Origin: Mobula hypostoma
Taxonomy: Eukaryota
Length of the DNA stretch: 64,000 nucleotides
NCBI RefSeq assembly: GCF_963921235.1
Contig: NC_086108.1
Span: forward strand, 79,548,001 to 79,612,000
Direction of reading: 5' to 3'
In this document: positions 8,430-55,551 of the stretch, piece by piece
Layout: each line of letters starts with the position of its first letter
Position numbering within the stretch: position 1 is the first letter of the stretch
Notes under the pieces: generated by a model
The model's database searches: none
What the model was told of the DNA's origin: nothing
What the model saw: the letters and a program-made list of their open reading frames with translations, nothing else
Translations under genes and position numbers: made by a program

Positions 8430-8895
8430 TCAATAAAAATACCATCTAGGTAGTCTCCAGCCCCTTTGTATGAACATAGAATTATCCAACTTCCAGTAAT
8501 TCCCTCCCCCTCCCTTTCTTTATCCCTATGAACCTCTGCCCCCTCCCCCAGCTGCCTATCACCTCCCTTATGGTTCTGCCTCCTTCTACTACCCATTGTG
8601 TTTTCCCCTATTCTTTCTTCACCTTTCCTGCCCATCCCCTCCTGCTTCCCCTCCCCCACCCCTTTATCTTTCCCCTGACTGGCTTTTCACCTGGAACCTA
8701 CCAGCCTTCTCCTTCCCACCCTCCCCCCCACCTTCTTTATAGGGCCTCTGCCCCTTCCCTCTTCAGTCCTGATGAAGGGTTCCGGCCCGAAACGTTGACT
8801 GATCGTTTCCACGGATGCTGCCCGACCTGCTGAGTTCCTTCAACGTATTGTGAGTGTTGCTTTGACCCCAGCATCTGCAGTGTATTTTGTGTTTA
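8430..8895 (+). mobile_element. PLE 3' fragment (end of endonuclease, pyrimidine-rich UTR, hammerhead, tail)
   Basis: Similar to 53670-54128, ending gatgctgcccgacctgctgagttcc...cagcatctgcag. Confidence 0.75.
8764..8801 (+). ncRNA. Minimal type I hammerhead ribozyme motif
   Basis: CAGTC-CTGATGA-A-GGGT TCCG GCCC-GAAAC-GTT^GACTG, with a perfect 5-bp stem I CAGTC/GACTG. Confidence 0.8.
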
Positions 8896-9059
8896 AAACT
8901 AATTTCTTGTTTCTCCAAATTCTTATGTGATAATAATTGTCTGAAATTATATTTGTGTTCAGCTTCAAGTGGCCTATCATAACCACAAAAACAATCTGAG
9001 GAAGCAACACCTTAAAAACAAATTTGCTGTCCAGTGTTTTTGAACAGAATTAGAGCACT

Positions 9060-10920
9060 TGGGAAATAAAACTGAAAATGCTGGAATAACTCGGCATGAC
9101 AAGCAGCATCTGCGGAAAGAGAAACAATTAACTTTTCAGGTCCAGGGTCCTCCTTCGTCAAAAGCAAGAAAAAGAGAAGCAAGTTGGTCTGGGTAGCAGG
9201 AAAGGGTGATTGGTGGGACAAAGCTTGTAGGATGAAATAATGAATACAAGATTCTGCGCGTGCTGGAAATCCAAAGCAACATGCACAAAGATGCTGGAGA
9301 AACTCTGCAGGTCAGGCAGCATCTGTGGAGAGGAATAAACTGTGGATGTTTCAGGCCGAGACCCTTCACCAGCACTTGAAAGGAAGGGGGAAGAAGCCAA
9401 GTAAGAAATGGAGGCAGGAAAAGGAGTACAAGCTAACAGATAATAGGTAATACCATTGAGGGGGAAGGGGATGAAGTAAGAAGCAGGTTTCAATTTGACT
9501 TCCCATTCCCCTTTTGACATGTCAGCCCGTGGCCGCCTGTTCTGCTGCAATGGGGCTACTCTTGGGTTGCAGGAGCAACACCTCATACTCTGTCAGGGTC
9601 TCTGACCTGCCAGCATTAACACTAGTTTCTCTAACTTAGGGTAATTTCTCCCCCCTGCCCCTTCTCTTTTCCTCACCTGCCTCTGGTAGCCCTCCTCCTC
9701 CCCCTTTGCCCATGGCGCACTGTCCTCTCCTATCAGATTCCTCCTCCTGCAGCCCTTCACTTCTTCCAGCCATCTTGGCCCAAAAAAAAACACCTGTTTA
9801 ATTCCCCTCCATAGATGCTGCCTGACCTGCTGAGTTCCTCCAGCATTATGAAGGTGAAATAATGGTTTAGTTATTGTGATGTGAAATGTGTTGCAAATGT
9901 GGTTTAGACTATGCAAACAAAAATGAGGAAAAAAAGGAGGATAGCAGACAAAAGTGGACAAATAGACAAAGAAGAACAAATTAACTAAAAGTGGAGAATG
10001 TGATGTTGGGTCCTATAGGATTGTGTCCTAAAAACAATGAGGTGTTGTTCCTTTAGCTTGTATTGTAAAAGTGAAGGAGGTCACAGTCGGAAAGGGAAGA
10101 TTGATAGTAGGATGCAAATTAAAATGGCAGGCAACAGAGATCAGGGTTTATCGCTGTCGTCTTGAGTACAGGTTCTCTGTGAAGTCATCACCCAAACCGT
10201 GTGTGGTTTCTTCACTGTAAAGGAGGCCATCTTTTGAACAAGTAATACAGTAATCTAGACTGGAGGAATTACAAGTGAGTTGTTCTTTCGCTTGGAAATT
10301 CTGTCCAGTACCCTGGATGGTGGGGTGTGAAGAAGTGAAGGGATGGGTGTTGCTCCTCTTGCAGTTGCATGGGAAGGGGCTGTACAATGGGGACTATTAG
10401 ACAGAGACAGAAGAGCAGACAGTGAACCATTTCAAAATGTTGAAACAGAGGGGAATGCGTGTCTGACGATGGAATCTTGTTGGAGCTGGCAGAAACTTTG
10501 AAAGACACTGCAATGAATTCAGAGCTGGTGTGATACAGACTGGGGACCTCAATTTTTGTTCTGTTCGGGAGGAGAAGGGGAGAGAGCAGAGCTACAGGAA
10601 ATAGGTCAGATGCATTCCGGGGTTCTTTCTATGAAAGTAAAGTGGAGCCATAATTAAGAGAGAAGCAAGCAATTTGGAGTCAACTGTACAGAAGATTTCT
10701 TCAATGGATCAAATGTGATGAAGGAGGAGGAAATGGGAGGATGGAATAGAGTCCTTACTGGAGGTAAGGTGGATGGAAAGTAACTATGCAGGGTCTGTCA
10801 ATCTTGGTTGCTACTCTTATCACTTGCGATGAAAATGGAGAAGGGAAGGGAGAGTCAGAGATGGAACATATGAAGATGGGAGCAGGTTAGAAGTCTACAA
10901 AGGTAATGGAATTTTTGACC
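9060..10920 (-). mobile_element. Old degenerate Penelope-like element (interrupted by 9243-9850)
   Basis: ORF 10148..10387 PFPCNCKR...PTIQG..QNFQ...DYCITCSKDGLLY.EET matches the linker/GIY-YIG of the 51694-53733 ORF. Tail at 9060-9240. Confidence 0.7.
9243..9850. mobile_element. Tail-out inverted PLE insertion nested in an older PLE
   Basis: Minus-strand 3' tail ~9243-9487, then a plus-strand GIY-YIG C-terminal remnant and tail ~9488-9850. tgaaataatg is duplicated at 9233-9242 and 9855-9864. Confidence 0.7.
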
Positions 10921-13900
10921 TGCAGGAATTCTATACATTCTCTGATATTAAATTGGACCATTGAACCATCGAATTAGCACAATATTTCGGTCAACGTCTT
11001 GTGACTAGTGGGGTTGTAGGGATCAGTGCTGGCACCCCTGGCTATTCACAATCCATATTAATGATCTGGTTCAGGGGACCAAGTGTAATATAAACAAGCT
11101 TGATACAAAGCTGAGAAGCAGTGTGATTTGTAAGGAAAATGCAGAGAGGCTTCTTGGGGATAAAGACAATCTACATATAAGGATGAGGATGTGACAGATG
11201 GAATATAATGTGAAAGAGGGTATCCACTTTGGTGGGAAAAAAACCAGAAAGTCAGAATATTTTTAATTGGTGAGGGACCAGCATATTGGTGTAGTCACGA
11301 TGAAGGCATGGTAGTGACTAAACTTCATTTGGACCTTGAGAAGATTTAGTATGCCATCAATTTGCTAGCAAATTTCTACAGATGTACCGTGGAGGGGCAT
11401 ACGGACTGGTTGCATCACTGTCTGGTTCGGGGGTACCAATGCACAGGATTAAAAGAGCCAGCACAGGGTTTGAAGCTCAGCAAGCTCCATCTCGGGCACA
11501 AACTTCCCCATCACTGAGGACATCTTCAAAATACAATGCTCACCATCGGCACATGCCCTCATCTATTACTACTATCAGAGAGAAGGTGCAGGAATTTGAA
11601 GACCCATGCGCAGTGTTTTAGGAACAGTTTCTTCCCTTCTGGCGTAAGAATTCCGAATAGTCTGTGAACTCGTGAACACTATCTCATTATTCCTCTTCTG
11701 GGCCACCTAATATTTTTAATGATAACTGCAAATAATTTGGCACTGTACTACTGCCACAGAACAAAAAATTTCACGACTTATGTCAGTGACAATAAATGTG
11801 AATCTGATTCTATTGGTGTTCACTGTCAACTCCATAGTAAGTGAATCAGGAAGTTATTTGTAAGAACAGCAAGCAATTAGGCAGGCAAATCATACATTGG
11901 CATCTATTGCACAAGAGCTTGAATTAATGCATCTTTCCAAAATTATATAGGAGCCTCACCAGGACCACTCTTGGAAAATTGTGGACAGTTCAGCAGGGAT
12001 TTCCTTGGAATTGATGAAATTCAATGCAGGTTTACTAGATTGATTCCTGGCATCAGGGTGGGGGAATTGTCCTACCAGGAGATGTTAAGCAGACTGGCTT
12101 ATATTCACTTGGCTTAGAAGAGTAGGAAGTGATCTGTTTGAAACATCCAGCACTGTTAAAGGATTTGACAAGGCTGATGTAGGCAACGGTGATGTTTTCA
12201 TGTGGTTGGGCATATTGGGAACCAAGTGCCCGAAAACAAGAGGTCAGTACTTTAGCCTTGAAATTTCTTCATTCGAAAGGGTGGTAAATCTTTGGCATTC
12301 ACTCTCCACGTGGGTGTGGAGGCTCAGTCGTGAAAAATAAGACTGATAGACATTTGGATATTCTGGAAATGACATCTGAAGATAATACAGGAAAATGGTG
12401 CAGAAGGAAAAGATTGACCATTATCTTGCCGAGTGGTGGAGCAGGTGCGATGAGCTAAATAGTGCCTCTACGTCTGGTGTTCCTTTGTTCTCCCGCTCTA
12501 ATTTCAGAGATGGATACTATACAGAATGTTGCAAGAGGCTGCCGGAGGGGCATGGTTGGTGGAGGTGAGCATATGGGCTGTGAGTGGTCATGTCTGGGGG
12601 TCACAAAGTTGGTTCAGTTTTATGCAGATCCTTGGCAGAAGGCTGTACAGCACTTAACACTCCATGAGTGACAATGTGAAATGGTTCCTGTTTGGCACGT
12701 GCAGTAAAATTGTCAGGAAAATGAACTAGGAAAGAATCAGAAACAGGTTTAATATCACGGGCATATTTCATGACATTTGTTAACTTTGCAGCAGCAGTAC
12801 AATGCAATACATAATAATAGAGAGAAAACTGTGAATTACAGTAAATATGTGAATATCTTAAATAGCTAAATTAAATGTGTAGTGAAAAAATTAGAAATTT
12901 TTTTAAAAAGGTGAGGTCGTGTTCATGGGTTCATTGTCCATTCAGAAATCTTTTGGTGGAGGGGAGGAAGCATTCTTGAATCACTGAGTGTATCCTTTCA
13001 GGCTTCTGTACCTCCTTGCTGATGGTAGCCAATGAGAAATCGACATGAAAAAGTGCTTTCTAGACTTATAGTGCCCAGGCTGTTCGTGAGCTTGTTCTGT
13101 ACATAGAGAGAAATCGTAACAAAGAAACTGCACTTGCGAAAGCAAGCAAAGGTTAACTGATGTCTTGTGGCTCATGGCGCAGAATTAGCAGGAGAGAGGA
13201 GTGGGAGGTGGAAGCATGGTGAAGTGGACCAGCGTAAAAGAATGGGAAAAACATGAATTTGAAGCTGTCATTTAACACAGAGGACCCCAGGAAAAAAAAA
13301 TGGTCCATCACCGCTTCACACATTAGCTCACTAGATATCTTTGTAGGAGTTCTAAAATAAATAAGACTCCACTCATGTTGTGCAGCTAGGGAAATATATC
13401 TAAATCCTCATAAATTACTGTGCAGCTGAAAATTGAATTTACTTGTACCTTCATCATAAAATAATACTTCAATGCAAACGAGATCTGTGGAAGAGGATTA
13501 AATGCCTTTCATTCTGTCCTGATTTTTCTTGGTGAAGATTAGAAACCAATAGCTCCTATTTCTGTCTACGCAGTATTGTGGCTCTAGATTAAAACCTAAT
13601 TACATGTAACAGGAGAAAAATGGCATCTGTATTCAATATGAACCCGAAAGCTGACCTTAATCTTCCGCTGTGGTAGCGCATTCAATTCAGAATGTCTTTT
13701 GAATAAGCTGTCAGTAAGCAAAGGAAAAGGAGAGGCAAAAAAATTAATACCATAACCCAGTTTGACGAGATGGTGATTATTCAGCTACAGCAGATTCTGT
13801 TTCAGTCAACACAGCTTTACTGTGGCATAAATATGATGAATCCATTGGTCAGGGCTGAAGGATTTACAGTTCCAACAGGACAGAGTCGAATTGCATCTGT

Positions 13901-14653
13901 AGTCTGCGAGCTGGTGATAATTTAGTCCTTTTTTCATTTGCTTAATGGAATGCTTCACAGCAGCTTTCTCTTCCATTATTTATGGAAGAATTCCACTTTG
14001 TGTATATGTTCTTTAAGAACTTGAACCTGCTTGCCTTTGATTTGTAGTCACCTTTTATAGTACTTCTAGTACCTAAATGGGAAGCAATGTGTTGCCCTCC
14101 ACCATTCATTTCAGTGACTGAATTAAGATTACTTCAGTCTAATTGTACTAAAGTTGGAGAAAATATCGCAAATAACGATATGTGCAGCTTCAAACTTAAG
14201 TTTAGTCTGACATTAAATAAATTGGAGTTTTGTAAATATAATTTTCAAATGCACTGTTTAGTAAGATGCCTTGGCAGTACTTTTGTTAGATTCCCTACTT
14301 ACGTTGTTGGTCTGCTGAGCCTCCATCACTACCCCATCAAGGAAGCCGGTATTTATATCCCACCTTTCAAAATCTCCCCTCTCATTTGGTGCTCTTGTAA
14401 GTATCTTGAAACTTCGAAAATTGTCTGCAGGATGTTGGTCTACAATGCAACCTACAGTTTCAATAAATAAATGAAGTTCAAAAGTCATGTCAGATAAAAA
14501 AAAAATTCCACCACAAAAAACAGATTCAAAAATTTGGTACCAATTTGAATCAAGTGCTGAGTGGCTAATGAGTATTTTGTTTTGACAAATGCACATGTTT
14601 AATCTTGTTGACACAGCTCAGTATGAAACTATTGGTTTCAGAGATTTACCTCT

Positions 14654-16035
14654 AGTTCAAAGTTCATAGTAAATTTATTATTAATGTAAATAATGTCACA
14701 ACCTTGAGATTTGTTTTCTTGTGGGCAATCGCAGTATATACAGGAAACACAATAGAATTGATGAAATATCACAACGACAAATGTCCAAATACAAAAAAAG
14801 AGGGGGAAATAATAATAATAAAGCTATAAATATCTACAACATGAAATGAAGAGTGAGTCGGGTTCAGCAAGAATGATTCAGTGAAGGGGCAAGTGAAGTT
14901 ATCCCCTATGGTTCAAGAGCCTGATGGTTGGGGGGAGAATAACTGTTCCTGAATCTGCTGGTGCATTCCCTGAGGCTCCAGTAACAACTTCCTGATAGCA
15001 GCAGTGAGAAAGAGCATGGCTTGGATGATGCGGAGCCCTAGATGATGGGTGCTGTTTTCCTGCGGCACTGCTCCATGTGGATGTGCTTAGGGCGGTGAGG
15101 GCTTTATCCGTGATAAAATGGGCTGTATTCATTACTCTTTGTAGGCTTTTCCATGCAAGGGCATTGGTGCTTCCATCCCAGGCTGTGATGAAACTGGTCA
15201 ATATACTCTCCACCGCACACCTATTGAAGTTTGTCAAAGTTCTAGATGACATGCCGAATCTGCGCCAACTTCTCAGAAAGTAGAGGCGCTGTCATGCTTT
15301 CTTCATAATGGCACTTACTTGCTGGACCCAGGACAGATCCTCTGAAATGATAACACCAAGGATTTAAAAGTTGCTGACGCTCTCCACTGCTGATCACCCA
15401 ATGAAGACTGGTGCATAGACCTCCAAGTTCCTCCACCTGAAGTCAATTATCATCTCCTTGGTCTTTCTGACATTGAGCGATAGGTTGTTGTGGTACCATT
15501 CCTCCAGAGTTTCAGTCTCCCTCCAATATGCTGATACATCACCACCCTTGATATGGCCAAGGACAATGGTGTCATCAGCAAACTTAGATATGGCATTGGA
15601 GCTGTGCTTAGCCTTACAGTCATAAGTATAAAAATGAGTAGAGCAGGAGCTAAGCAGACAGCCTATGCTGAAGGAGATTGTGGAGGAGATGTTGTTGCCA
15701 ATCTGAACTGACTGAAGTCTGCAAGTGAGGAAATTGAAGATCCATTTGCAGAAGGAGGTATTGAAGCCAAGGTCTTGAAACTTAATTAGTTTTGAGGGGA
15801 TGATAGTATAAAATGCCAAGCTGTAGTCAATGAAGAGCTTCCTGATGTATGTATCTTCATTGTACAGATGTTTCAGGGTTAAGAGAAGAAGGCAATGAAT
15901 TGACATCTGCTGTTGACCTGTTGTATCAGTAGACAAACGGAAATGGATTTAAGTTGCTCTCAGGCAGGAGTTGATATGTTTCATCACTAACCTCTCAAAG
16001 TTCTTCATCACAGTGGATGTAAATGCTATTGGACA
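14654..16035 (-). mobile_element. Rex1/Babar-like LINE 3' portion
   Basis: [53 protein letters not shown]. Tail aataaatttactatgaactttgaact on the minus strand. Confidence 0.8.
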
Positions 16036-16557: not shown

Positions 16558-16733
16558 TGTTATGTCTTGTAACACCAGAACATAAAACTGATTCAAAGAA
16601 AACAAACGGAGTAATTTGTGTATGTTCTTCTTTTTTACTTTAAGCAAGATGTGATGTCATTCACATAATTTACATATAATGAACGAAAATTGTCACAATA
16701 TTGTTCAAATAGTACTGAAATATTAAATACATG
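16558..16733. repeat. Dispersed repeat (possible solo-LTR remnant), partly duplicated at ~16110-16235
   Basis: taa.ttgtgtat.ttctt...tttaag...cattcacataattt.catataat occurs twice in direct orientation. This copy begins tgtt. Confidence 0.4.
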
Positions 16734-20563: not shown

Positions 20564-20771
20564 AAAACGCAAACAACAGGAATTCTGCAGATGCTGGAAA
20601 TTCAAGCAACACGCATCAAAGTTGCTGGTGAACGCAGCAGGCCAGGCAGCATCTCTAGGAAGAGGTACAGTCGACGTTTCAGGCTGAGACGCTTCGTCTG
20701 ATGAAGGGTCTCGGCCTGAAACGTCGACTGTACCTCTTCCTAGAGATGCTGCCTGGCCTGCTGCGTTCACC
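20564..20771. mobile_element. 208-bp hairpin mini-element derived from the PLE 3' end, 15-bp TSD
   Basis: Arms 20627-20698 and 20700-20771 are reverse complements with 3 differences in 72 nt. Flanks tggataaatatttca (20549-20563) and tggataagtatttca (20772-20786). Confidence 0.9.
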
Positions 20772-21160
20772 TGGATAAGTATTTCACTGTCTCATTTGAT
20801 GTAGACTTACAGACCCTGACAATTGTCACCGGGGGAAAAATTCCCTTCATCCCCTCCTCCTCTAAATCTGTGATCAGTGATAACTATCCAAAAGGAATAA
20901 ACTTTCTGTCTACTCTATAACCAGCTCACATCTTTCTGAAAAGGTCACATCATAACAGTCTTACAGGAAGAACAGTCGTCACCATTACAATGTTTCCTCA
21001 TTCTAGTAACATCCTGATTCACTCTTTATGTTCTTTTTCTAAGCAATTGTATCTTTCCTGGCAGCCAGAATTGTCATCTGAGGCCTGGCCTAGCAAGGTT
21101 CCAGTTTAATTTCACTTTTTATATTCTATGCTTCCTTTTGCACCAAGTAAGTCTAATAAG

Positions 21161-27867: not shown

Positions 27868-28137
<270 letters not shown>

Positions 28138-34395: not shown

Positions 34396-35335
34396 ATGTC
34401 TCCTGAGACAGTGATGTGCCTCTCATGTGAGATGTGGCAGTCTTGGGGGAACTCCCCTCTCCCGCAGAGTCACATCTGTCAGAAGTGCATATGGCTGGGC
34501 GAGCTGGAAGACCGTGTAAGAAATCTGGAGCACACCTGGATGACCTTCGACTCATAAGGGAGAATGAGGCAGTCATAGATGAGAGCTACTGGGAGGTAGT
34601 CACACCTAGGCTGTTGGAAGCAGGTTGTTGGGTGACAGTCAGAGGGGGAAAGTGAAGGTGAGCAGACAGGTAGTGCAGAGCACCCCAGTAGCCATTCCCC
34701 TGAATAATAAGTTTACCGTCCTGGATACTGTTGGCGGGAACGACCGACCAGGTGTGAGCCAGGGTGGCAGGGCCTCCGGCACTGAGTCTGAGCCGGTGGT
34801 GCAGAAGGGTGGGACAGAGAAGAGGAGAGCTGTCGTCATTGGAGACTCTATAGTCAGGGGAGCAGACAGGAGATTTTGTGGACGTGAGAAGGACACCCGC
34901 ATGGTTTGTTGCCTCCCGGGTGCCAGGGTCCGGGATGTCTCTAACCGGGTGCACGACATCCTGGTACGAGAGGGAAAGCAACCAGAAGTCATGACACATG
35001 TTGGGACCAACGACATAGGCAGGAAGAGGGATGAGGTCCTGAAGTGTGAGTTTCGGGAACTAGGCAGAAGGCTGAAGAACAGGACCTCAAGGGTGGCGTT
35101 CTCAGGATTGTTGCCAGTGCTACGTGACAGAGATGATAAGAATTGGAGGAGATGGCAGTTGAATGCGTGGCTGAGGAGTTGGTGCAAGGGGCAGGGTTTT
35201 AGATTTTTGAATCATTGGGATCTCTTCCAGGGAAGGTGGGACCTGTACAGATTGGATGGGTTGCACTTGAACTCGAGAGGGAGCAATATCCTTGCAGGTA
35301 GGTTTTCTAGCATGGTTCGGGAGCGTTTAAACTAA
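34396..35335 (+). pseudogene. CR1 ORF1: CxxC..CxxC zinc finger + SGNH/GDSL esterase-like domain, frameshifted
   Basis: MSPETVMCLSCEMW...HICQKC, then VVIGDSIVR, LPGA, HVGTNDI and DGLHLN in ORF 34625..35335. Confidence 0.85.
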
Positions 35336-35370
35336 TTTGCAAGGGGGATGGGACCCAGACCGATAGAGCA

Positions 35371-38225
35371 GTGAAAGAAGTGCATGGAGTAAAGCCAGAT
35401 CTAACATATAGAGAGGCTTTGAGAAAAGAGAAGCAGAATAAACAGTGTAAAGACAGTAAGGTAGAAGGGCTGAAATATGTGTACCTCAATGCAAGAAGCA
35501 TCAGGAACAAAGGTGATGAACTGAGAGCTTGGATACATACATGGAATTATGATGCAGTGGCCATTACAGAGACTTGGCTGGCACCAGGGCAGGAATGGAT
35601 TCTCAATATTCCTGGATTTCAGTGCTTTAAAAGGGATAGAGAGGGTGGAAAAAGGAGAGGAGGGGTGGCATTACTGGTCAGGAATACTATTGCAGCTACA
35701 GGAAGGGTGGGTAATGTAGCAGGATCCTCTTTTGAGTCAGTATGGGTGGAAGTCAGGAACAGGAAGGGAGCAGTTACTCTATTGGGTGTATTCTATAGGC
35801 CCCCTGGTAGCAGCAGAGATACAGAGGAGCAGATTGGGAGGCATATTTTGGAAAGGTTCAAAAATAACAGGGTTGTTATCATGGGTGACTTTAACTTCCC
35901 TAATATTGATTGGCACATGATTAGTTCCAAGGGTTTAGATGGGGCAGAGTTTGTTAAGTGTGTCCAGGACAGATTCCTGTCACGGTATGTGGACAGGCCG
36001 ACTAGGGGGAATGCCATACTAGATCTAGTACTAGGTAATGAACCGGGTCAGGTCACAGATCTCTCAGTGGGTGAGCATCTGGGGAACAATGACCACCGCT
36101 CCCTGGCCTTTAGCATTATCATGGAAAAGGATAGAATCAGAGAGGACAGGAAAATGTTTAATTGGGGAAGGGCAAGTTATGAGGCTATAAGGCTAGAACT
36201 TGCGGGTGTGAATTGGGATGATGTTTTTGCAGGGAAATGTACTATGGACATGTGGTCAATGTTTAGAGATCTCTTGCAGGATGTTAGGGATAAATGTGTC
36301 CCGGTGAGGAAGATAAAGAATGGTAGGGTGAAGGAACCATGGGTGACAAGTGAGGTGGAAAATCTAGTCAGGTAGAAGAAGGCAGCATACATGAGGTTTA
36401 GGAAGCAGGGATCAGATGGGTCTATTGAGGAATATAGGGAAGCAAGAAAGGAGCTTAAGAAGGGGCTGAGAAGAGCAAGAAGGGGGCATGAGAAAGCCTT
36501 GGTGAGTAGGGTAAAGGAAAACCTCAAGGCATTCTTCAACTATGTGAAGAAAAAAAGGATGACAGGAGTGAAGGTAGGACCGATTAGAGATAAAGGTGGG
36601 AAGATGTGCCTGGAGGCTGTGGAAGTGAGCGAGGTCCTCAATGAATACTTCTCTTCGGTATTCACCAATGAGAGGGAACTTGATGATGGTGAGGACAGTA
36701 TGAGTGAGTTTGATGTTCTGGAGCATGCTGATATTAAGGGAGTGGAGGTGTTGGAGTTGTTAAAATACATTAGGACAGATAAGTCCCCGGGGCCTGACGG
36801 AATATTCCCCAGGCTGCTCCACGAGGCGAGGGAAGAGATTGCTGAGCCTCTGGCTAGGATCTTTATGTCCTCGTTGTCCACAGAAATGGTACCGGAGGAT
36901 TGGAGGGAGGCGAATGTTGTCCCCTTGTTCAAAAAAGGTAGTAGGGATAGTCCGGGTAATTATAGACCAGTGAGCCTTACGTCTGTGGTGGGAAAGCTGT
37001 TGGAAAAGATTCTTAGAGACTGGATCTCTGGGCATTTAGAGAATCATGATCTGATCAGGGACAGTCGGCATGGCTTTGTGAAGGGCAGATCGTGTCTAAC
37101 AAGCCTGATAGAGTTCTTTGAGGAGGTGACCAGGCATATAGATGAGGGTAGTGCAGTGGATGTGATCTATATGGATTTTAATAAGGCATTTGACAAGCTT
37201 CCACACAGCAGGCTTATTCAGAAAGTCAGAAGGCAAGGGATCCAGGAAGTTTCTCCAGGTGGATTCAGAATTGGCTTGCCTGCAGAAGGCAGAGGGTCGT
37301 GGTGGAGGGAGTACATTCAGATTGGAGGATTGTGACTAGTGGTGTCCGACAAGGATCTGTTCTGGGACCTCTACTTTTCGTGATTTTTATTAATGACCTG
37401 GATGTGGGGGTAGAAGGGTGGGTTGGCAAGTTTGCAGACAACACAAAGGTTGGTGTTGTAGATAGCGTAGAGGATTGTTGAAGATTGCAGAGAGACATTG
37501 ATAGGATGCAGAATTGGGCTGAGAAGTGGCAGATGGAGTTCAACCCGGAGAAGTGTGAGGTGGTACACTTTGGAAGGACAAACACCAAGGCAGAGTACGA
37601 AGTAAATGGCAGGATATTTGGTTGTGTGGAGGAGCAGAGGGATCTGGGGGTACATGTCCACAGATCCCTGAAAGTTGCCTCACAGGTGGATAGGGTAGTT
37701 GAGAAAGCTTATGGGGTGTTAGCTTTCATAAGTCGAAGGATAGAGTTTAAGAGTCGCGATGTAATGATGCAGCTCTATAAAACTCTGGTTAGGCCACACT
37801 TGGAGTACTGTGTCCAGTTCTGGTCACCTCACTATAGGAAGGATGTGGAAGCATTGGAAAAGGTACAGAGGAGATTTACCAGGATGCTGCCTGGTTTAGA
37901 GAGTTTGCATTATGGTCAGAGATTAAGGGAGCTAGGGCTTTGCTCTTTGGAGAGAAGGAGGATGAGAGGAGACATGATAGAGGTGTTCAAGATAAGAAGA
38001 GGAATAGATAGAGTGGATAGCCAGCGCCTCTTCCCCAGGGCACCACTGCTCAATACAAGAGGACATGGCTTTAAGGTAAGGGGTGGGAAGTTCAAGGGGG
38101 ATATTAGAGGAAGGTTTTTTACTCAGAGAGTGGTTGGTGCGTGGAATGCACTGCCTGAGTCAGTGGTGGAGGCAGATACACTAGTGAAGTTTAAGACTAC
38201 TAGACAGGTACATGGAGGAATTTAA
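35371..38225 (+). pseudogene. CR1 ORF2 (APE + RT) with stops and frameshifts
   Basis: YLNARSI, AITETWL, GGGVAL, YRPP, MGDFNFP, LDLV, NDH, KSPGPDG, NYRPVSLTS, QGSVLGP, FADN (from FADD). Stops at 36373-36375 and 37479-37481, frameshift near 37250. Confidence 0.9.
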
Positions 38226-43652: not shown

Positions 43653-45126
43653 TGTTAGGATGTTATTCACCTGTGTGTGCCAAAAAAAAAGGATAAGAAT
43701 AGTTAATCTTGGTTCACGTTAAACCCTATAGCTGGAGAGAGAAAATAAAGGGTTTCCAGACGATGAGTTGAATACAGATTTGAATCAGATCCCAATGATG
43801 AAAGAACACAGGGCTAATCAATAATGACATCCAGTCCCCTTGACTCTACAGCAATTTTGTTTTCCGTTTTTACTTAAATCATGCATGGGATCAGTTGCTG
43901 AATACTCAGGTGGCCAGTCTCTCTGTGTGAGTTTAAATACTGAGCGCTGGCAGATTGCATAACTGTGAAGGAATGATAGATGAACCAGTTCTCTACTTGC
44001 CAAACAGAGCATTAGCTTTGGCTGGAGAGAAAACAGAAGTAGCAACAATAACTGTTTATCCTCAGCCACCACCCTCATGTCCTAACACAGGACTAACATT
44101 TCAGCTCAGTCTTCATGAGTTCAGGTCATTGACCTAACAATAACTTAGCTTCTCCCTTCTCAGTTTGTTTTCCTTTGACTTAACTTTGCTGAGACCAGAA
44201 TCTCAACCACATACAAAGAGAGGAGCAAAGATTTGAAATTAATGACAGGACCTAACTTTTTTTTCCTCACTTGCTGACTGGCAGTACAAACAGGTCAGGA
44301 AACCGGCTGAAAGGTGGAGAGGAAGGCCTCCAGTACCATGCTCCAGCTCAGAGCACAGCAGACAGTAGGAAAGTATAAATACAAGATGCTGGAAATCTAG
44401 AGCACTGCACACAGCGTGCTGGAGGAGCTCAGCAGATCAGGCAACATCTATGGATAGGAATAAACAGTCGAAGTTTCAGTCCGAGACCCTTCATCAGAAA
44501 GCTTTGAAGTGGAGAGCAGAATGGACAGGTGGAGGAAGAGCACATGCTGGAAGAGGGACCAAGGAAAGATGGATGAGTGGGATTTGGAGAGATTGAGGGA
44601 GTGAAGAGCTATGGTTGTCCGTATGGTGTACGTAAAAATTAATAGATGAGGGTTCTGCAGAAATTGTGGAGTTTCATTTGCTGTGCTGTATTGAGCATGA
44701 TTTGATTAGGGGCATCTGATCACAAAGAAGGGGCTATGATTGTGCTTGGGGTGTATGTAATTGTTGGGGTTCACTGGTTAGCATAGCTAGAGTTACATTC
44801 ATGAGAATAGTGAGTTTAGATGGAGGGAGAACATCTAATGGATACTGACTGAGTAGGAAAATGGCCAGGGGAGAACTTCTGTTCTTCCTAGCCTTAAGCA
44901 ATGTTAGGCACTTGCTGGTTCCCACTGCCTGTCAGCTACCAGCTTTTCTATACCCAGCAAAGCTGACTACTGTACAGCGCTTAAATGCAAAACAGAGCTG
45001 CTGGTAGTTAAAATCAGAAATGGGAATGCTGGCACGAGGAAATCTGCAGATGCTGGAAATTCAAGCAACGCACATCAAAGTTGCTGGTGAACGCAGCAGG
45101 CCAGGCAGCATCTCTAGGAAGAGGTA

Positions 45127-45165
45127 CGGTCGACGTTTCGGGACGAGACCCTTCATCAGGACTAA
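45127..45165 (-). ncRNA. Minimal type I hammerhead ribozyme motif in PLE 3' fragment (~45034-45180)
   Basis: Minus strand TTAGTC-CTGATGA-AGGGTCTCGTCCC-GAAAC-GTC^GACCG. Confidence 0.75.
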
Positions 45166-45625
45166 CTGAAAGAAGAGCTAGGATAAGAGATAGGATAAGA
45201 AGAACTGGGGTAAGATTTGTCATTTTTGAGTTTTGAACAGTGAGTCCCCATTCCCAAGGTGCTCAGAAACAAGCATTTTAATCTTAATTTCAGATGGACA
45301 TGTATATTGTTTAATAAATGATAAATATTTAGGGAGATGGCAGTCTGTGTTGTGTTCGTGTGGAAATACCTGAAGCAAAATTACCTGAAATATAAAACAG
45401 TTTCAGAGGTTTTGTGTGAACATCGGTCTCTATCTGAGGCTAAACTTGCTCAACGCTGTATGAAACCTCCTTCTGCTTTATTGTTCTGTGAAACTAGGAA
45501 AGCCAATGAATGACTGGTTTGCCATTGTTGTCATGGTGGGCTAACATTTTAGCTGTTTTACAAACCCTTGTAGTTACATGCAGGAGATAATATTGAGTGA
45601 AGTGAGGGACTTGGGACAAGTTTGA

Positions 45626-45922
<297 letters not shown>

Positions 45923-46002
45923 TAAAACTTACTTTTATAAGTGTTTCCGTACTCCAGTCTAAAACAAAATGGTTCGATTCTAATCTGTCATTACTTCCTT
46001 AA

Positions 46003-46182
<180 letters not shown>

Positions 46183-46493
46183 TGATGTAGTCACACAGTC
46201 GTTTTCAAACATAAATAACACAGAAGTGGGCCAAAGTGCAGATGGAACAACGTTGGAAATAAATGCAAGTTAAATTAGCAAGGTGCTAATCATACAGCAT
46301 CCATGGAGAAAATAGGCCAGTTTAAGATTTACAGTCATTTCAATGAAGTGTTGCTTTTAACATTTTAGATGCTCTGTGTTCTCCATCAATGCATATTGAC
46401 CTGAGAGTCGGCAGGATTTTCTGTTTTGGTTACTGCCTTATGTTGGTATTCAGGGTTGAGTTTGGGGAAAGTCCCTAATTGGAAGTTACCAGT

Positions 46494-47478
46494 GTTCAAA
46501 GTTCAAAGTAAATTTATTATCAAAGTACATACATCTCACCATATACAACCCTGAGATTCATTTTCTTGTGGGCATTTGCAGTAAATACAAAGAAACACAA
46601 AAGAATCAATGAAAAACTACACACAACAAAGACGGACAAACAACCAGTGTGCAAGAGACAACAAGCCATGCAAATAAAAAAGAGAAAAATAATTCAACAA
46701 ACACGTAAACAAACGAACAATTGATATTGAGAACACAAGTTGTAGAGTTATTGAAAGTGAGTCAATTGGTTGTGGAATAAGTTCAGTGTTGGGTGATTGA
46801 AGTTATCCTTTCTAGTTCAAGGGCCGAGTGGTTCAGGGGAAATAACTGTTGCTGAACCTGGTGGTGTGGGACCTGGGGCTCCTGTACCTCCTTCCTGATG
46901 GCAGCAGCAAGAAGAGAGCATGACCCAGATGGTGGGGGTCCTTGATGATGGACGCTGGTTTCCTGCAACAGCACTCCTTGTACATGTGCTTAATGGTGGG
47001 GAAGGCCTCACCCGTGATGAACTGGCTGTGTCCAGAACTTTTTGTAGGCTTTTCTGTTCAAGGGCATTGGTGTTTTTATACCAGGCTGTGATGAAACTAA
47101 TCAGACTACTCTCCACCATGCAGCCATAGAAGTTATGCAAAGTTTTAGATGACATGCCGAATCTTTGCAAACTTCTAAGAAAGTAGAGGTGCTGCCGTGT
47201 CTTCTTGGTAATAGCACATACATACTGGCCCCAGGACAAATCCTCTGAAATAATAACACTGAGGAATTTAAAGTTGCCAACCCTCTCCATCTGTAATCCT
47301 CTGATGAGAACTGGCTCATGGACCTCTGGATTCCTCCTCTTGTAGCCAATGATCAGCTCTTTAGTCTTGCTGGCGGTGATTGGGAGATTGTTGATGAGGC
47401 ACCATTCAGCCAGATTTTCAATCTCTGTCCTGTATGCTGTTTCGGCGAAGAACAGTGGGGTCATCAACAAACTTAAAC
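46494..47478 (-). mobile_element. Rex1/Babar-like LINE 3' portion (shorter copies at ~7745-8310 -, ~11300-11810 +, ~12735-13050 -, ~54685-55020 -)
   Basis: ORF 46817..47470 LAEWCLINNL...KTKELII...FKFL...HLYFLR...ITAWY. Same tail as the 14654 copy. Confidence 0.8.
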
Positions 47479-49457
47479 TTAAAGTTAAATTTATATGAAT
47501 GCTATTGAGACTTTTAAAAGTATCTTTCTTGTTTTTTTAAAGGGATTGTTGAGATTGGTTTAATCACATAGTAAAGAAACCCTGCAACATTTAAATGTTC
47601 ACAAATATCTCAATATTCGCTACTATTTAATATGTATTTTGTATACAACTATTATTTCTATCTTTATAAATAATAATGGAAGGATCCTGCTTGGCCCATC
47701 AAATCTATACTACCTCTCAGAGGACTGCTTCCCAATTCTCTGCAGCTTCCCTGTAAACCATTCTCTCTCAGTTGCCTGTCGACTGTGATTCTCCTGCTAC
47801 CCACGGGTGTTGGAGGCAATTCACGGCATCCAGTTAGCCGACCATCCTACGTGCCTTTGGGACGCAGGATGAAACTGGAGCACCAGAGAACCCCATACAT
47901 TCACAGGGAGAACAGGCAAACAGCACCAGAGGCCAGGATTGACCCTGCTGTGTTGTTGGAGTTGTGCCCAAGCAGCTCCGGCTGCTGCATCACCATGGTG
48001 ACAGTAACCTGTCACTGACTGTGACCACCTGAGGTGTTTGCTGCCTGTGAAGATGAGGCAGCAGTAAACACCATCCCTCCTCACCGAAGTGGAATGCATT
48101 TCAAAATTCTCACTGATTTTCTTTAGCCACTTTATCGTTCTAACGCTGTTAGTCCTCCTACTATCCTATGCAAGCCAGCTTCACAGCACAGCAGTCATCA
48201 GCACAAGAAATTTTACAGATGCTGGAAATCCATTGTAAATGTTGGAGGAACTTAGCAGGTCAGGCAGTATCAATGGAGAGGAATAAACAGTCAACGTTTT
48301 GGGCCAAACTCTTCACCAGTGCACCTGTGCTTGCAGACAGTGGAGAACAAGTTCTTCTCTCGTCTCTTGCTTCAGGATTACAATGGAGTAACAGCTGCGC
48401 ATTTGAATCGCCTCACATAATATCAAGAAATGGCTGAGAAAACTCAGCAGTAAAGGCCCAGCTGTAGTATTAGAGACCCGTGCTCCAGAAACTGCCGTGT
48501 CTCTGGCCAAACTGTTGCAGTGTGGCTACAGTGCTGGTAATTACCCAACCATGTGGAAAATTGCCCAGGTATTTTCTGTTCACGCAAAAAAAAATGCAGG
48601 GCAATCCCTTCTGGCCAATTACTGCCCAGTCGGTCCACTGTCAATCCTCAGCAAAGTGATTCAAGGAGTCATGGATAGTTTCAGATTCAGGTTTTTAATC
48701 ACATGTACCTCAATGCATACTGTTGAATATGCTGGTTGCGTTGACAACCAGCACATCCAAGGATGCGTGGGGGCAGCCCACAAGTGTACACACTCAGAAT
48801 AGCATCAGAGTAGCATGTCAACAATGTCCTACAGGGCAACAAACAGTTCTGTCAAGCCACTGTTGTTTCCCAGCAATGGCTCACCGTTGCTCAGTTTGGG
48901 TTTTGCCTGTACCCTTCAGTTCCTGGCCTTAGCCCAGCCTTCATGCATGCAGGGACCAAATATAAATTCCAGAGGTGCAATGAGACTTGACTGTCCTAGA
49001 TAACAAGGTAGCATTTGACATCATGATGACCTTATAAAATCAGTGAGCAGGTATCAAAAGACAAACACTTCATAGCCTGTTTAATGGACGTAGTTGTGGC
49101 TGTTGGTGATCAATCATCCCAGCCCCAGGACATCAGTGCAGCAGTTCCCTGACTCAATGTCCTAGGTACAACCATTGTCAGCTGCTCATTCAATGACATG
49201 CTTTCTATTACAAGGTCCATAATTGCATAGTGTTCAATGCTATTTGCATTTTCCTTCGTAAGTGAAGCAACCAGTTCCTGCACGAAGCAAAATAGCAATC
49301 ACCTCTCTATAATTGAAAGGAGTGATGTGGGTTATTTGAATCTTTATCATGGAAAGACCCTACATCTACCAATGGTATGTTTAAAATATTCAGGTAGGCC
49401 TGACAGAGTTCTACTCTGGTGAGTTTTCTTTCTGGTCAGGTGCTATGATAATCATAA

Positions 49458-49646
<189 letters not shown>

Positions 49647-50931
49647 TAAGGGGGAGGGGGTCTTCTCGTTTCTTCAGCCTGTTTGCTCCAGTTGGTTTGT
49701 CACCAACTTCCACATATAACCACTGGAGGGAGCACTTATGCAAAAGCTTTGCTTTTGTAGACAGATGGTTGACGAACACCAGTTCTGTAATTCTGATATT
49801 GGATGCCTTGCTGTTTTGAATCCCGTTTGCTTTTGATTAGAATCAAATATTAAGATGGTCCCAAATATATCCACAGTCAGTGTGCATTCTGCCATCCAGA
49901 AATCCAATTCATGGCAGTTGGGAATTTCAATTTAGTTAATTAAAATGTTTTAATTATTGAAGCAACCCCATCAAAACATGTTTTTGGTTGTAGTGCACTA
50001 CTAACATGTGGGGAAGCAGATTGTTGTGGAAAGTGTGATATTCAATTCTGTTGTTCAGTTCTATTTGCACTTCATTGGAAAATGCAGCAGCCCATATCTG
50101 CCTGCAGTAAGATCTAGGCAACTTGCAGACGTGGGATATTACATAGCAGATAAGATTTATGCTTTGGCAATGACACTGCCAATAAGGGAGAGTCTAATCA
50201 CATACCCTTAGTATTTACCCGCATCCCTATCACTCAGTATCATTAAAAGCCTGATCAGTAACGTCAATACCACAGCTAAAAGAACAGCTCAGAGGCTGGG
50301 GTTTCTACGCTGGGTAGCTCACTGTCTGAGTCCCAAAGGCCTTTTCACCATCTGCAGGGTACAAATAAGGAGCCTGACGGAACACTTCCTAACCAGGGGA
50401 GATGGCGGCAATTCTAGAAGAGCTGCTGCCCCTCAATCCTGACCTTCGTTACTCTCTGAGTAGAGAATGCACATTCTCCCTCTGACAAAGTGCTTTGGTT
50501 TCCTCTCAACATCCCAAAGCTGTGCAATTGAGTGGTGAGTTTTCTGCTGCAAATAAGAGGTAGAATGATTCAGGTCAGGGAGATGGATGTGGAGAAAATA
50601 AAGCGGAATTTGTCTAGGATCAAGAGAATGCAGGTGCTGGAATATGGAGCAAATAACAAGCTGCTAGAGGAATAGTGTAAATGGGCTTTGATGGCTAGTG
50701 TGATCTGTAGGCCTTGTTTTATGCTGCTTGGCTCCAAGAGTTCAACATGTCTCTTAAATGGTACGCCATCTGCAATCAGTTTTGCTCCTTCCGTAACCAG
50801 CACATACCATGGTTGTAATTCCTACCCTGCAGAATGGAAACAGGAATTCTGCAGATGCTGGAAATTCAAGCAACACACATCAAAGTTGCTGATGAACGCA
50901 GCAGGTCAGGCAGCATCTGTAGGAAGAGGTG

Positions 50932-50969
50932 CAGTCGACGTTTTAGGCCGAGACCCTTCGTCAGGACTA
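50932..50969 (-). ncRNA. Hammerhead motif in the inverted arm, GAAA core mutated to AAAA
   Basis: Minus strand TAGTC-CTGACGA-AGGGTCTCGGCCT-AAAAC-GTC-GACTG. Position 50944 is t where other copies have c. Confidence 0.7.
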
Positions 50970-51693
50970 ACTGAAGGAAGAGTGAGTAAGGGATTTGAAA
51001 GTTGGAGGGGGAGGGGGAGATCCAAAATGATAGGAGAAGACAGGAGGGGGAGGGATAGAGCCAAGAGCTGGACAGGTGATAGGCAAAAGGGGATACGAGA
51101 GGATCATGGGACAGGAGGTCCGGGAAGAAAGACAAGGGGTGGGGGGGAGGACCCAGAGGATGGGCAAGAGGTATATTCAGAGGGACAGAGGGAGAAAAAG
51201 GAGAGTGAGAGAAAGAATGTGTGCATAAAAATAAGTAACAGATGGGGTACGAGGGGGAGGTGGGGCCTTAGCGGAAGTTAGAGAAGTCGATGTTCATACC
51301 ATCAGGTTGGAGGCTACCCAGACGGAATATAAGGTGTTGTTCCTCCAACCTGAATGTGGCTTCATCTTTACAGTAGAGGAGGCCATGGATAGACATGTCA
51401 GAATGGGAATGGGATGTGGAATTAAAATGTGTGGCCACTGGGAGATCCTGCTTTCTCTGGCGGACAGAGCGTAGATGTTCAGCAAAGCGGTCTCCCAGTC
51501 TGCGTCGGGTCTCGCCAATATATAAAAGGCCGCATCAGGAGCACCGGATGCAGTATATCACCCCAGTCGACTCACAGGTGAAGTGTTGCCTCACCTGGAA
51601 GGACTGTTTGGGGCCCTGAATGTTGGTAAGGGAGGAAATGAAAGGGCATGTGTAGCACTTGTTCCGCTTACATGGATAAGTGCCAGGAGGGGA

Positions 51694-53733
51694 GCCTACT
51701 TCTTCGGCAAGGACTCTTCCACGCCCACCGATGACCCCTTCTCCCGTCTTCAACCCTCCTCTTCTTCATGGACACCCCGCTCTGGTCATCTGCCTGCTCT
51801 GGATCTCTTTATCGCTAATTGCCGACGGGACATCAACTGTCTCGACTTCACTGCACCTTGTCCCCATTCCAACCTCACTCCTTCGGAACGCTCTGCTCTC
51901 CACTCCCTCCGCACTAATCCTAACCTTATTATTAAACCCGCCGATAAGGGGGGTGCTGTTGTAGTCTGGCGTACTGACCTCTACCTTGCCGAGGCACAGC
52001 GACAACTCGCGGATACCTCCTCTTATTTACCCCTCGATCGTGACTCCACTAAGGAGCACCAGGCCATTTGTCTCCCACACCATCACCGACTTTATCCGCT
52101 CAGGGGATCTCCCATCCACTGCCACCAACCTTATAGTTCCAACACCCCGCACTTCCCGTTTCTACCTCCTACCCAAGATCCACAAACCTGCCTGTCCTGG
52201 CCGACCTATTGTCTCAGCTTGCTCCTGCCCCACCGAACTTGTTTCTGCATACCTCGACACAGTTTTATCACCCCTTGTTCAATCCCTTCCTACCTATGTT
52301 CGTGACACTTCTCACGCTCTTAAACTTTTCGATGATTTTAAGTTCCCTGGCCCCCACCGCTTTATTTTCACCATGGATGTCCAGTCCTTATATACTTCCA
52401 TCCCCCATCAGGAAGGTCTCAAAGCTCTACGCTTCTTTTTGGATTCCAGACCTAATCAGTTCCCCTCTACCACCACTCTGCTCCGTCTAGCGGAATTAGT
52501 CCTTACTCTTAATAATTTCTCCTTCGGCTCCTCCCACTTCCTCCAAACTAAAGGTGTAGCTATGGGCACCCGTATGGGTCCTAGCTATGCCTGCCTTTTT
52601 GTTGGGTTTGTGGAACAATCTATGTTCCGTGCCTATTCTGGTATCTGTCCCCCACTTTTCCTTCGCTACATCGACGACTGCATTGGCGCTGCTTCCTGCA
52701 CGCATGCAGAACTCGTTGACTTTATTAACTTTGCCTCCAACTTTCACCCTGCCCTCAAGTTTACCTGGTCTATTTCTGACACCTCCCTCCCCTTTCTAGA
52801 TCTTTCTGTCTCTGTCTCTGGAGACAGCTTATCCACTGATGTCTACTATAAGCCTACTGACTCTCACAGCTATCTGGACTATTCCTCTTCTCACCCTGTC
52901 TCTTGCAAAAACGCCATCCCCTTCTCGCAATTCCTCCGTCTCCGCCGCATCTGCTCTCAGGATGAGGCTTTTCATTCTAGGACGAGGGAGATGTCTTCCT
53001 TTTTTAAAGAAAGGGGCTTCCCTTCCTCCACTATCAACTCTGCTCTTAAACGCATCTCCCCCATTTCACGTACATCTGCTCTCACTCCATCCTCCCGCCA
53101 CCCCACTAGGAATAGGGTTCCCCTGGTCCTCACCTACCACCCCACCAGCCTCCGGGTCCAACATATTATTCTCCGTAACTTCCGCCACCTCCAACGGGAT
53201 CCCACCACTAAGCACATCTTTCCCTCCCCCTCTCTCTCTGCATTCCGCAGGGATCGCTCCCTACGCAACTCCCTTGTCCATTCGTCCCCCCATCCCTCCC
53301 CACTGATCTCCCTCCTGGCACTTATCCGTGTAAGTGGAACAAGTGCTACACATGCCCTTACACTTCCTCCCTTACCACCATTCAGGGCCCCAAACAGTCC
53401 TTCCAGGTGAGGCAACACTTCACCTGTGAGTCGACTGGGGTGACATACTGCGTCCGGTGCTCCCGATGTGGCCTTTTATATATTGGCGAGACCCAACGCA
53501 GACTGGGAGACCGCTTTGCTGAGCATCTACGCTCTGTCCGCCAGAGAAAGCAGGATCTCCCAGTGGCCACACATTTTAATTCCACATCCCATTCCCATTC
53601 TGACATGTCTATCCACGGCCTCCTCTACTGTAAAGATGAAGCCACACTCAGGTTGGAGGAACAACACCTTATATTCCGTCTGGGCAGCCTCCAACCTGAT
53701 GGCATGAACATTGACTTCTCTAACTTCCGCTAA
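51694..53733 (+). pseudogene. PLE ORF: reverse transcriptase + Cys linker + GIY-YIG endonuclease, two frameshifts
   Basis: Motifs IKPADKGGAVV, YLLPKIHK, GRPIVS, MDVQSLYTSIP, GVAMGTRMGPSYA, RYIDD, PFLD, YYKPT. Linker C-x4-C-x2-C (PCKWNKCYTC). Endonuclease VTYCVRCSRC..YIGET.R...RFAEH, ending GMN. Frameshifts near 52067 and ~53295 split it over ORFs 51583.., 51986.. and 53407..53733. Confidence 0.92.
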
Positions 53734-54029
53734 GGCCCCACCTCCCCCTCGTACCCCATCTGTTACTTATTTTTATGCACACATTCTTTCTCTCACTCTC
53801 CTTTTTCTCCCTCTGTCCCTCTGAATATACCCCTTGCCCATCCTCTGGGTCAACCCCCCACTCCTTGTCTTTCTTCCCGGACCTCCTGTCCCATGATCCT
53901 CTCGTATCCCTTTTGCCTATCACCTGTCCAGCTCTTGGCTCTATCCCTCCCCCTCCTGTCTTCTCCTATCATTTTGGATCTCCCCCTCCCCCTCCAACTT
54001 TCAAATCCCTTACTCACTCTTCCTTCAGT

Positions 54030-54067
54030 TAGTTCTGACGAAGGGTCTCGGCCTGAAACGTCGACTG
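54030..54067 (+). ncRNA. Minimal type I hammerhead ribozyme motif in the PLE 3' region
   Basis: TAGTT-CTGACGA-AGGGTCTCGGCCT-GAAAC-GTC^GACTG: core CUGANGA and GAAA, stem II hairpin, GUC triplet (predicted cut after 54062), stem I AGTT/GACT, stem III reduced to palindromic ACGT. Confidence 0.8.

Positions 54068-55167: not shown

Positions 55168-55551
<384 letters not shown>

Follow-up and report, generated by a model that had tools for sequence, protein, structure and literature searches.

Do hammerhead ribozyme motifs lying in the introns of a host gene cut its pre-mRNA? The question arises in a 64,000-nt window of the Mobula hypostoma genome (the whole stretch that was analyzed; positions are counted within it and strands are given relative to it), where ZSWIM5 is encoded on the + strand from 1487 to 62732 by 11 coding exons. 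Exons 1 to 6 lie at approximately 1487-1642, 5939-6088, 27907-28086, 45737-45913, 46018-46167, and 49503-49640, and exons 7 to 11 at approximately 55270-55533, 56461-56598, 57991-58146, 61196-61360, and 62643-62732. The motifs are hammerheads in the 3' pseudo-LTR (pLTR) ends of a Penelope-like retroelement (PLE). We consider the copies in ZSWIM5 likely to be inert passengers from PLE insertions, predicted to be paired to nearby antisense copies and likely not to cut the pre-mRNA (probability of roughly 0.86). RNA contigs of four of nine listed runs over 54200-63000 give cover that is mostly repeat-derived, and contigs cannot show RNA ends.

A profile search recovered 24 copies of the motif in the window, 10 sense and 14 antisense relative to ZSWIM5, in line with the original prediction that it recurs more than 12 times. 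A scan for core, stems, and a 2-nt palindrome gave three matches in the window and none in each of 100 dinucleotide shuffles, and a chance match was rejected. An Rfam scan gave no match to hammerhead families at E ≤ 10. A microRNA reading was also rejected; the mir-3926 match at 20664-20734 falls under the gathering score and reflects only a perfect hairpin. The core, palindrome, and stems are all kept in 3 of the 24 copies (8764..8801 [+], 54030..54067 [+], and 45127..45164 [-]), at the coordinates and with the motif first proposed for them. The CUGANGA/GAAA/UH core is present in these three and in the copy at 20698, and in all four helix III is collapsed to a palindromic ACGT (15.2-16.2), as had been predicted; the same holds for the consensuses of all four subfamilies.

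The hammerhead at 8764 is an intact minimal type I form from an older, small subfamily, with a GUU triplet and a predicted cut after 8796, while the intact copy at 54030 belongs to a young, high-copy subfamily and has a GUC triplet and a predicted cut after 54062; both cut positions agree with those originally given. Each has a stem I of 5 bp, a stem II of 4 bp, and an extra unpaired A between positions 9 and 10.1. The 10.1-11.1 pair is G-C in 8764, 45127, and the three older consensuses and G.U in 54030 and the young consensus; TG at 11.1-12, which makes the G.U form the dominant young variant, occurs in 41 of 58 young copies. The antisense hammerhead at 45127 has an intact core and a stem II of 3 bp; the pLTR end that contains it (45040-45178) is short and young.

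Several other copies are incomplete. A fold-back insertion at 20581..20774 consists of two opposed pLTR ends, in both orientations, the sense arm of which begins at the core (20698) and is paired in the hairpin; the description of 20698-20730 (+) as a core lacking the 5' strand of stem I was correct. An older fold-back (3265..3477, both orientations) is made of two decayed pLTR ends with broken cores in both. The supposedly intact core at 44465-44498 (-) did not stand: it belongs to a decayed antisense copy (44382..44517) that retains the core letters but has ACTT for a palindrome, has lost stem I including its 5' strand, and has no hammerhead fold. The 8764 hammerhead is borne on a pLTR 3' end (8753..8884, +), and the same intron holds a decayed pLTR end in the opposite orientation (9250..9385, -) that is predicted to pair with 33 of the 38 nt of this hammerhead. 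A pyrimidine-rich stretch upstream of the 8753..8884 end (8439-8512) shows a 70% match to the pLTR.

The 54030 hammerhead closes a 3.3-kb PLE insertion with a reverse transcriptase (RT), a GIY-YIG domain, an inverted arm, a tail, and a target-site duplication (TSD) of 12 bp (50827..50838 and 54130..54141, both +; 13 bp on the left with one ambiguous C). The inverted, 5'-truncated arm (50839..51691, -) lies in the same intron as 54030 and shows 96.7% identity over 825 bp (50867-51691); position 12 of its own hammerhead (50932-50969) is A. A tail of about 30 nt is found on the left arm only (50839 to about 50869). The RT frame (51965..53410, +) matches RVT_1 at an E value of 9e-6, below the Pfam cut-off, with the DKG motif just upstream in a different frame. 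It is followed by a C-x4-C-x2-C linker and, at the C terminus, by a GIY-YIG endonuclease (53212..53733, +; E value of 1.3e-4, at the Pfam cut-off). RT and GIY-YIG are in adjacent frames, and the open reading frame (ORF) of the insertion is split over several frames. The 3' pLTR follows (53734..54129, +), placing the hammerhead about 300 nt past the GIY-YIG stop and about 60 nt before the element end.

This kind of ribozyme is already known (Cervera and De la Pena 2014, PMC4209133), and the assignment to minimal, dimer-type, type I hammerheads of PLEs is supported by that paper, in the excerpts drawn on here, and by the anatomy of the element. As in the metazoan PLE hammerheads described there, which include those of the fish elements Xena, Poseidon, and Neptune, the motif is of type I, has a helix III palindrome, resides in the pLTR, and carries an unpaired nucleotide between 9 and 10.1. 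Mostly single copies of truncated elements and opposite-strand pairs 100-700 bp apart are also shared. Unlike the examples in those excerpts, the host is a cartilaginous fish, stem II has only 4 bp, the young variant has G.U, and 39,061 identical 33-mers compare with about 4,000-9,000 motifs in coelacanth and Xenopus. A literature search found no work joining hammerhead ribozyme, shark, and Neptune.

The insertion resembles Neptune/Nematis PLEs (Craig et al. 2021, PMC8557442, as excerpted) in having RT followed by a C-terminal GIY-YIG with a CX2-5CxxC linker, 5' truncation, an adjacent inverted truncated copy, a pLTR hammerhead, and a one-sided tail (30-40 bp there, about 30 nt here). This likeness is one of domain layout, linker, and insertion form. 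Unlike the elements in those excerpts, the insertion has a broken ORF, no upstream tandem pLTR, and a clear 12-bp TSD. A minimal pLTR hammerhead and a tail signature are likewise found in PAc, a Poseidon element of Anolis (Frangieh et al. 2024, PMC11167929), which differs, in the excerpted text, in its clade, in having no Cys linker, and in having been assayed for activity. Non-LTR retrozymes (bioRxiv 10.64898/2026.07.22.740005) are similarly of type I, derived from PLE pLTRs, and common in introns; according to the part of the preprint consulted, they occur in the one chondrichthyan sampled and are somewhat depleted in Xenopus introns. Retrozymes form head-to-tail tandem arrays, whereas the copies described here are dispersed or inverted. 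A retrozyme array was rejected, as the nearest intact same-strand copies in 1.86 Mb of sampled genes are at least 3.4 kb apart and come from separate insertions. The CPEB3 HDV-like ribozyme (PMC10919898; self-cleavage half-life of 2-3 min) and the amniote intronic hammerheads (PMC6765202) are likewise self-cleaving motifs that lie within introns in the sense orientation. Both are, in the excerpts drawn on, conserved single loci, unlike these repeat copies without stem III, which have unbiased strand and near-neutral decay.

An exact 33-mer of the motif occurs 39,061 times in the 3.48-Gb genome (48,862 times when two sites are left degenerate; the reversed control gives 0), and thus ZSWIM5 is not special. 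All four subfamily consensuses keep the core, ACGT, and stems, with variation among them in N7, H17, loop 2, and flanks, which indicates selection in the element lineage and not for the host. On our reading, the motifs in ZSWIM5 introns were left by ordinary truncated and inverted insertions of this very abundant retrotransposon. Only in the active lineage of the element would the ribozyme persist, working there by dimerization across tandem pLTRs or with the help of the element's protein. In a host intron, the monomer would form a rod with its core letters paired with the palindrome or, alternatively, a long double-stranded RNA with the inverted arm. A rod with paired core letters is the predicted fold of the 54030-type monomer, from nearest-neighbor energies that leave out Mg2+, tertiary contacts, and proteins. 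According to the excerpts drawn on, minimal hammerheads do not cleave as monomers and do so only weakly as dimers (PMC4209133), the Anolis PLE hammerhead requires protein (PMC11167929), and slow intronic ribozymes leave splicing unaffected (Fong 2009, cited in PMC10919898).

The hammerhead at 8764 is predicted to be paired with an antisense copy about 550 nt away, and that at 54030 would form a duplex of about 810 bp with the inverted arm, pairing all 38 of its nucleotides. In a sample of eight genes (1.86 Mb, with 490 motif copies, 37 of them fully intact), an antisense partner within 5 kb able to pair at least 25 of the 38 nt was found for 18 of the 20 intact sense copies, including all four in ZSWIM5.

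Strand bias was absent from the same eight genes, in which 241 of the 490 copies are sense. Depletion of intact cores on the sense strand, which the original prediction had put forward as a check, was not seen: 20 fully intact copies are sense and 17 antisense (P = 0.74; 95% confidence interval, 0.37 to 0.71), a sample small enough that depletion under about 40% would escape notice. Nor does strand differ between intact and broken copies (Fisher P = 0.60); the 12 core letters are kept in 84 of the 490. Among single CpG variants of the 33-mer genome-wide, core-killing changes occur at about the same rate as harmless ones, with counts of 2,832 for N7 C→T, 2,393 for G→A in the palindrome, 1,962 for C→T in the loop, and 1,752 for G8→A. 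That G8→A is the least common of these four speaks against the passenger reading. CpG decay of the palindrome is symmetric (CA, 80; TG, 77; 296 copies).

Excess conservation or covariation of core and stem positions across genomic copies, the absence of which had been named as evidence against cleavage, is largely lacking. There was no covariation across genomic copies, 9 of the 10 stem positions tested being within 0.03 of the marginal expectation, and palindrome pairing was lower than expected. In old copies the core is slightly less decayed than base-matched downstream DNA (254 changes observed versus 285 expected; P = 0.048), for which subfamily mixing and profile bias could account. In young copies, a low core divergence (10/522 versus 59/1508; P = 0.035) disappeared after subfamily-variant columns were dropped and bases matched (10 versus 13; P = 0.48) and was therefore rejected as evidence of selection. 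At the level of the family, near-neutral decay without covariation or strand bias gives no sign of host selection.

One alternative would extend inertness to the active elements themselves, with the young hammerhead already a relic that no longer cleaves, or else a structural cue marking where transcripts start or reverse transcription stops. It would draw on the predicted rod and on the G.U of the young variant, at a pair where G-C is called highly conserved (PMC4209133, in the excerpts drawn on). Consistent with it, the 5' ends of young copies cluster around the front of the hammerhead (16 of 81 from -8 to +3 relative to C3), whereas only 1 of 81 falls at the cut site (+25 to +31). The scarcity of ends at the cut site agrees with the lack of cut ends in PAc RNA-seq in the excerpted PMC11167929, where hammerhead mutants also insert in vitro. 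We nevertheless consider it unlikely. Every catalytic position and the palindrome are kept in all four consensuses despite flank divergence, and at the CpG that they share, G8→A is outnumbered 1.6-fold by the tolerated N7 variant; both observations are compatible with selection for catalysis in source elements. Either way, the conclusion for the host gene stands.

It is considerably less probable that some intronic sense copies cut host pre-mRNA at a low level and that selection mainly keeps those masked by inverted arms. Such cutting would rely on close same-strand partners, on help from PLE protein, or on motifs in other transcripts acting in trans. The tens of thousands of identical copies could make partners of the last kind abundant, and protein-assisted cleavage is known in the Anolis PLE (PMC11167929, as excerpted). 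Partners within 5 kb are lacking for 2 of 20 intact sense copies versus 6 of 17 antisense ones (Fisher P = 0.11), and within 10 kb for 0 of 20 versus 2 of 17. However, this difference is not significant at any of six distance cut-offs (P = 0.11 to 0.75), and the trend is absent at 0.5 to 2 kb. Broken copies lean likewise (17 sense versus 23 antisense without a partner), overall strand bias is absent, core-killing variants are not enriched, and PLE insertion ordinarily produces inverted arms (PMC8557442, as excerpted). Slightly less probable still is the general form of this idea, by which the tens of thousands of intronic dimer-type hammerheads are latent pre-mRNA cutters activated in trans or by PLE protein, with inverted arms as a safety catch and unmasked sense copies selected against.

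The original prediction, that 8764 and 54030 dimerize by ACGU pairing within a single nascent ZSWIM5 transcript and cleave the two introns that hold them as it is made, is extremely improbable. Both are intact sense copies with ACGT in a single pre-mRNA, and compatible swapped stem I strands allow a dimer to be drawn. They belong, however, to subfamilies of different age and occupy separate introns (6089-27906 for 8764, 49641-55269 for 54030), with 45,266 nt and four exons between them. At 3.5-4.1 kb/min, a mammalian rate from the excerpted PMC10919898, 54030 would be made 11-13 min after 8764, and transcription of the intron with 8764 would have ended 6-7 min before 54030 appears. The effective concentration is estimated at 15-43 nM for a coil or about 1 µM if compacted, and the active heterodimer is disfavored by a crude +8.5 kcal/mol against the monomer ensembles. 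By the time 54030 is transcribed, its inverted arm has already been made and would pair it. The Kd values of the energy model were not taken at face value, because it omits Mg2+ and core contacts.

With the ZSWIM5 copies read as inert passengers of PLE insertion, the finding is an ordinary one, in that both the ribozyme motif and the class of retroelement carrying it are already known. The 39,061 identical copies nevertheless make this a well-powered genome in which to ask about the host cost of PLE hammerheads, a first measurement of which, in the eight-gene sample, suggests none. Depletion of unmasked sense copies, or the finding of cut ends, would be the first in vivo evidence of PLE hammerhead cleavage and, if true, would tie the geometry of PLE insertion to host tolerance.

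The minimal hammerhead motif is present in the window where the original prediction placed it, and a profile search (motif plus ~90 bases downstream) found 24 copies there, 10 on the plus strand and 14 on the minus strand. A scan that required the core together with both stems and an insert of 2 nt at stem III returned three matches, named here by window coordinate (8764+, 54030+, and 45127−), and none across 100 dinucleotide shuffles. The predicted cuts are also rightly placed and would fall after 8796 (GUU) and after 54062 (GUC). The copy at 44465, claimed to be intact, is not: it lacks stem I and has ACTT as its palindrome. No hammerhead family appeared in an Rfam scan of the window at E ≤ 10, probably because stem III is missing.

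The 54030 copy terminates a Penelope-like element (PLE) insertion on its 3′ side. Domain and frame searches place a reverse transcriptase (RT) frame at 51965 to 53410 (+) and a GIY-YIG frame with a C-x4-C-x2-C linker at 53212 to 53733 (+). The insertion also has an inverted arm (50867 to 51691, −; 96.7% identity over 825 bp) with ~30 additional bases not found on the other arm, and a 12-bp target site duplication (50827 to 50838 and 54130 to 54141). This layout is the one described for endonuclease-positive PLEs in PMC8557442, and the linker is of the Neptune or Nematis type, which makes these the candidate clades. The remaining window copies are short pseudo-LTR (pLTR) ends, including two fold-back pairs (20581 to 20774 and 3265 to 3477). 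The 33-mer at 54035 to 54067 has 39,061 exact occurrences in the 3.48-Gb genome and 48,862 with two degenerate sites, and its reversed control has none. The introns also hold a near-full-length sense CR1/L2-type LINE (34610 to 38225, +), whose GDSL-esterase-like ORF1, AP endonuclease, and RT frames are interrupted by stops and frame changes, and other dispersed repeats, LINE fragments with RT-like frames (7745 to 8001 and 12733 to 12991; 14655 to 15533 and 46494 to 47439).

The peptide of a window exon matched ZSWIM5 proteins, and the ray protein P0011 places 11 ZSWIM5 exons on the plus strand, with 92 to 100% identity in nine and 82 to 86% in two whose alignments extend into intron. These identities suggest a ray-like cartilaginous fish as the source of the genome. 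The gene spans ~245 kb in total; 244 kb of it contain 87 profile matches versus 509 in the entire 1.86-Mb sample, and its hammerhead load is therefore not unusual. For the strand test, 1.8 Mb from eight genes was combined with the window and oriented by protein or CUB-domain matches (the seven non-ZSWIM5 gene names are our own labels). The 509 matches gave 490 past inclusion and 296 spanning the entire hammerhead. Sense/antisense counts in the eight-gene sample were 241/249 for all copies, 45/39 for intact cores, 20/17 for fully intact copies (P = 0.74; CI, 0.37 to 0.71), and 127/132 for broken copies. This sample reveals no depletion of intact copies on the sense strand, although a modest one would escape it.

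It had further been proposed that 8764 and 54030 dimerize in cis and cut the introns. Such a dimer can be drawn, with ACGU in both copies and compatible stem I strands, but distance, energy, and nearer partners oppose it. The copies lie in different introns (6089 to 27906 and 49641 to 55269), separated by four exons and 45,266 nt. Crude estimates give an effective concentration of 15 to 43 nM as a coil or ~1 µM if compacted, and the active heterodimer is predicted at +8.5 kcal/mol relative to the monomer ensembles, an energy without Mg2+ or tertiary terms. At a mammalian elongation rate quoted in PMC10919898, 54030 would be made 11 to 13 min after 8764 and 6 to 7 min after completion of the 8764 intron, so 8764 has likely already been spliced out. 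Nearer antisense partners are predicted to outcompete the distant pairing. Another intact sense hammerhead in ZSWIM5 (G000:C50:~79536490 in the searched assembly) lies 11.5 kb upstream of the window and 20.3 kb from 8764, in another intron, with antisense copies close by.

Folding predicts that antisense copies mask the hammerheads. The inverted arm is transcribed before 54030 and is predicted to form with it an ~810-bp duplex that takes up all 38 nt of this hammerhead. The 8764 copy is predicted to pair with the antisense copy at 9250 to 9385, its hammerhead stems having probabilities of 0.0, and hairpins are predicted to enclose the copies at 20698 and 3360. Even with only local flanks folded, the modeled stem II probability is 0.001 to 0.002, and isolated 38-mers are predicted to form rods in which core letters pair with the palindrome. 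In the most amplified young subfamily, C at N7 would let GACG pair with CGUC, giving an inactive rod. An opposite-strand copy lies within 500 nt of 214 of the 490 copies and within 5 kb of 422, and of the 20 intact sense copies, 18 (among them all four in ZSWIM5) have an antisense partner at ≤5 kb that could pair at least 25 of 38 nt. Intact copies unmasked at 5 kb number 2/20 sense versus 6/17 antisense (P = 0.11), which counts against reading them as passengers; the difference is absent at cutoffs of 0.5 to 2 kb, and unmasked broken copies at 5 kb (17 sense, 23 antisense) lean the same way. In the ZSWIM5 pre-mRNA, the ~810-bp double-stranded RNA predicted from the inverted arms (50867 to 54132) would probably be open to A-to-I editing or to processing into small RNAs.

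According to PMC4209133, minimal hammerheads have no activity as monomers and low activity as dimers. For the Anolis PLE, hammerhead cleavage requires protein, insertion can proceed in vitro without the hammerhead, and RNA-seq shows no cut ends (PMC11167929); slow intronic ribozymes leave splicing unaffected (Fong 2009, as cited in PMC10919898). This literature suggests that in a tandem source element, two pLTR hammerheads may dimerize, or the element's protein may chaperone them. Among 81 young copies, the window's own included, BLAST edges place one 5′ end near the cut site, 16 within −8 to +3 of C3, and 47 within −36 to +47, a cluster at the hammerhead front and not the cleavage site. The scarcity of starts at the cut site is in line with uncut templates. 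The window copies 20698, 3360, and 44497 are also truncated around the hammerhead front.

Genome-wide, single CpG variants of the 33-mer (degenerate-site count minus exact count) number 1,752 for G8→A, 2,393 for palindrome G→A, 1,962 for loop C→T, and 2,832 for N7 C→T; therefore, damaging and harmless changes accumulate at 4.5 to 6.1% and 5.0 to 7.2%, respectively. Palindrome CpG decay is symmetric (CA, 80; TG, 77; CG, 87; n = 296 copies). Covariation in the stems was not borne out, with pairing at 10 stem positions exceeding marginal expectation by ≤0.03. Non-CpG core changes number 10 versus 13 expected from downstream DNA in 58 young copies (P = 0.48) and 254 versus 285, slightly below downstream DNA, in 238 old ones (P = 0.048). 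The motif does not pass this test of selection as a host-functional intronic ribozyme, and the window copies are not a retrozyme array. In each of four clusters of at least five copies (73, 67, 6, and 6), the majority sequence retains the core, ACGT, and stems; these sequences vary at N7, H17, loop 2, and the flanks. One inverted pair (G000:C1:5490702-5490734, −, and 5491325-5491357, +) has the same palindrome-breaking change in both arms, which suggests either that a broken palindrome in the source RNA did not prevent its copying or that conversion of the arms took place.

The window copies have the testable sequence features of the minimal hammerheads of metazoan PLEs and would work in the same mode. 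Those hammerheads carry G10.1-C11.1, whereas the young subfamily here has G·U (in 54030, window position 54054 is 11.1), the state of the most amplified young subfamily genome-wide. Our literature search turned up no description of this shark/ray family; a 2026 preprint reports hammerheads derived from PLEs in one chondrichthyan (bioRxiv 10.64898/2026.07.22.740005). Judged by sequence, the window hammerheads are a further case of the already known PLE minimal hammerhead, which, in our reading, is kept in the replicating element lineage and decays after insertion.
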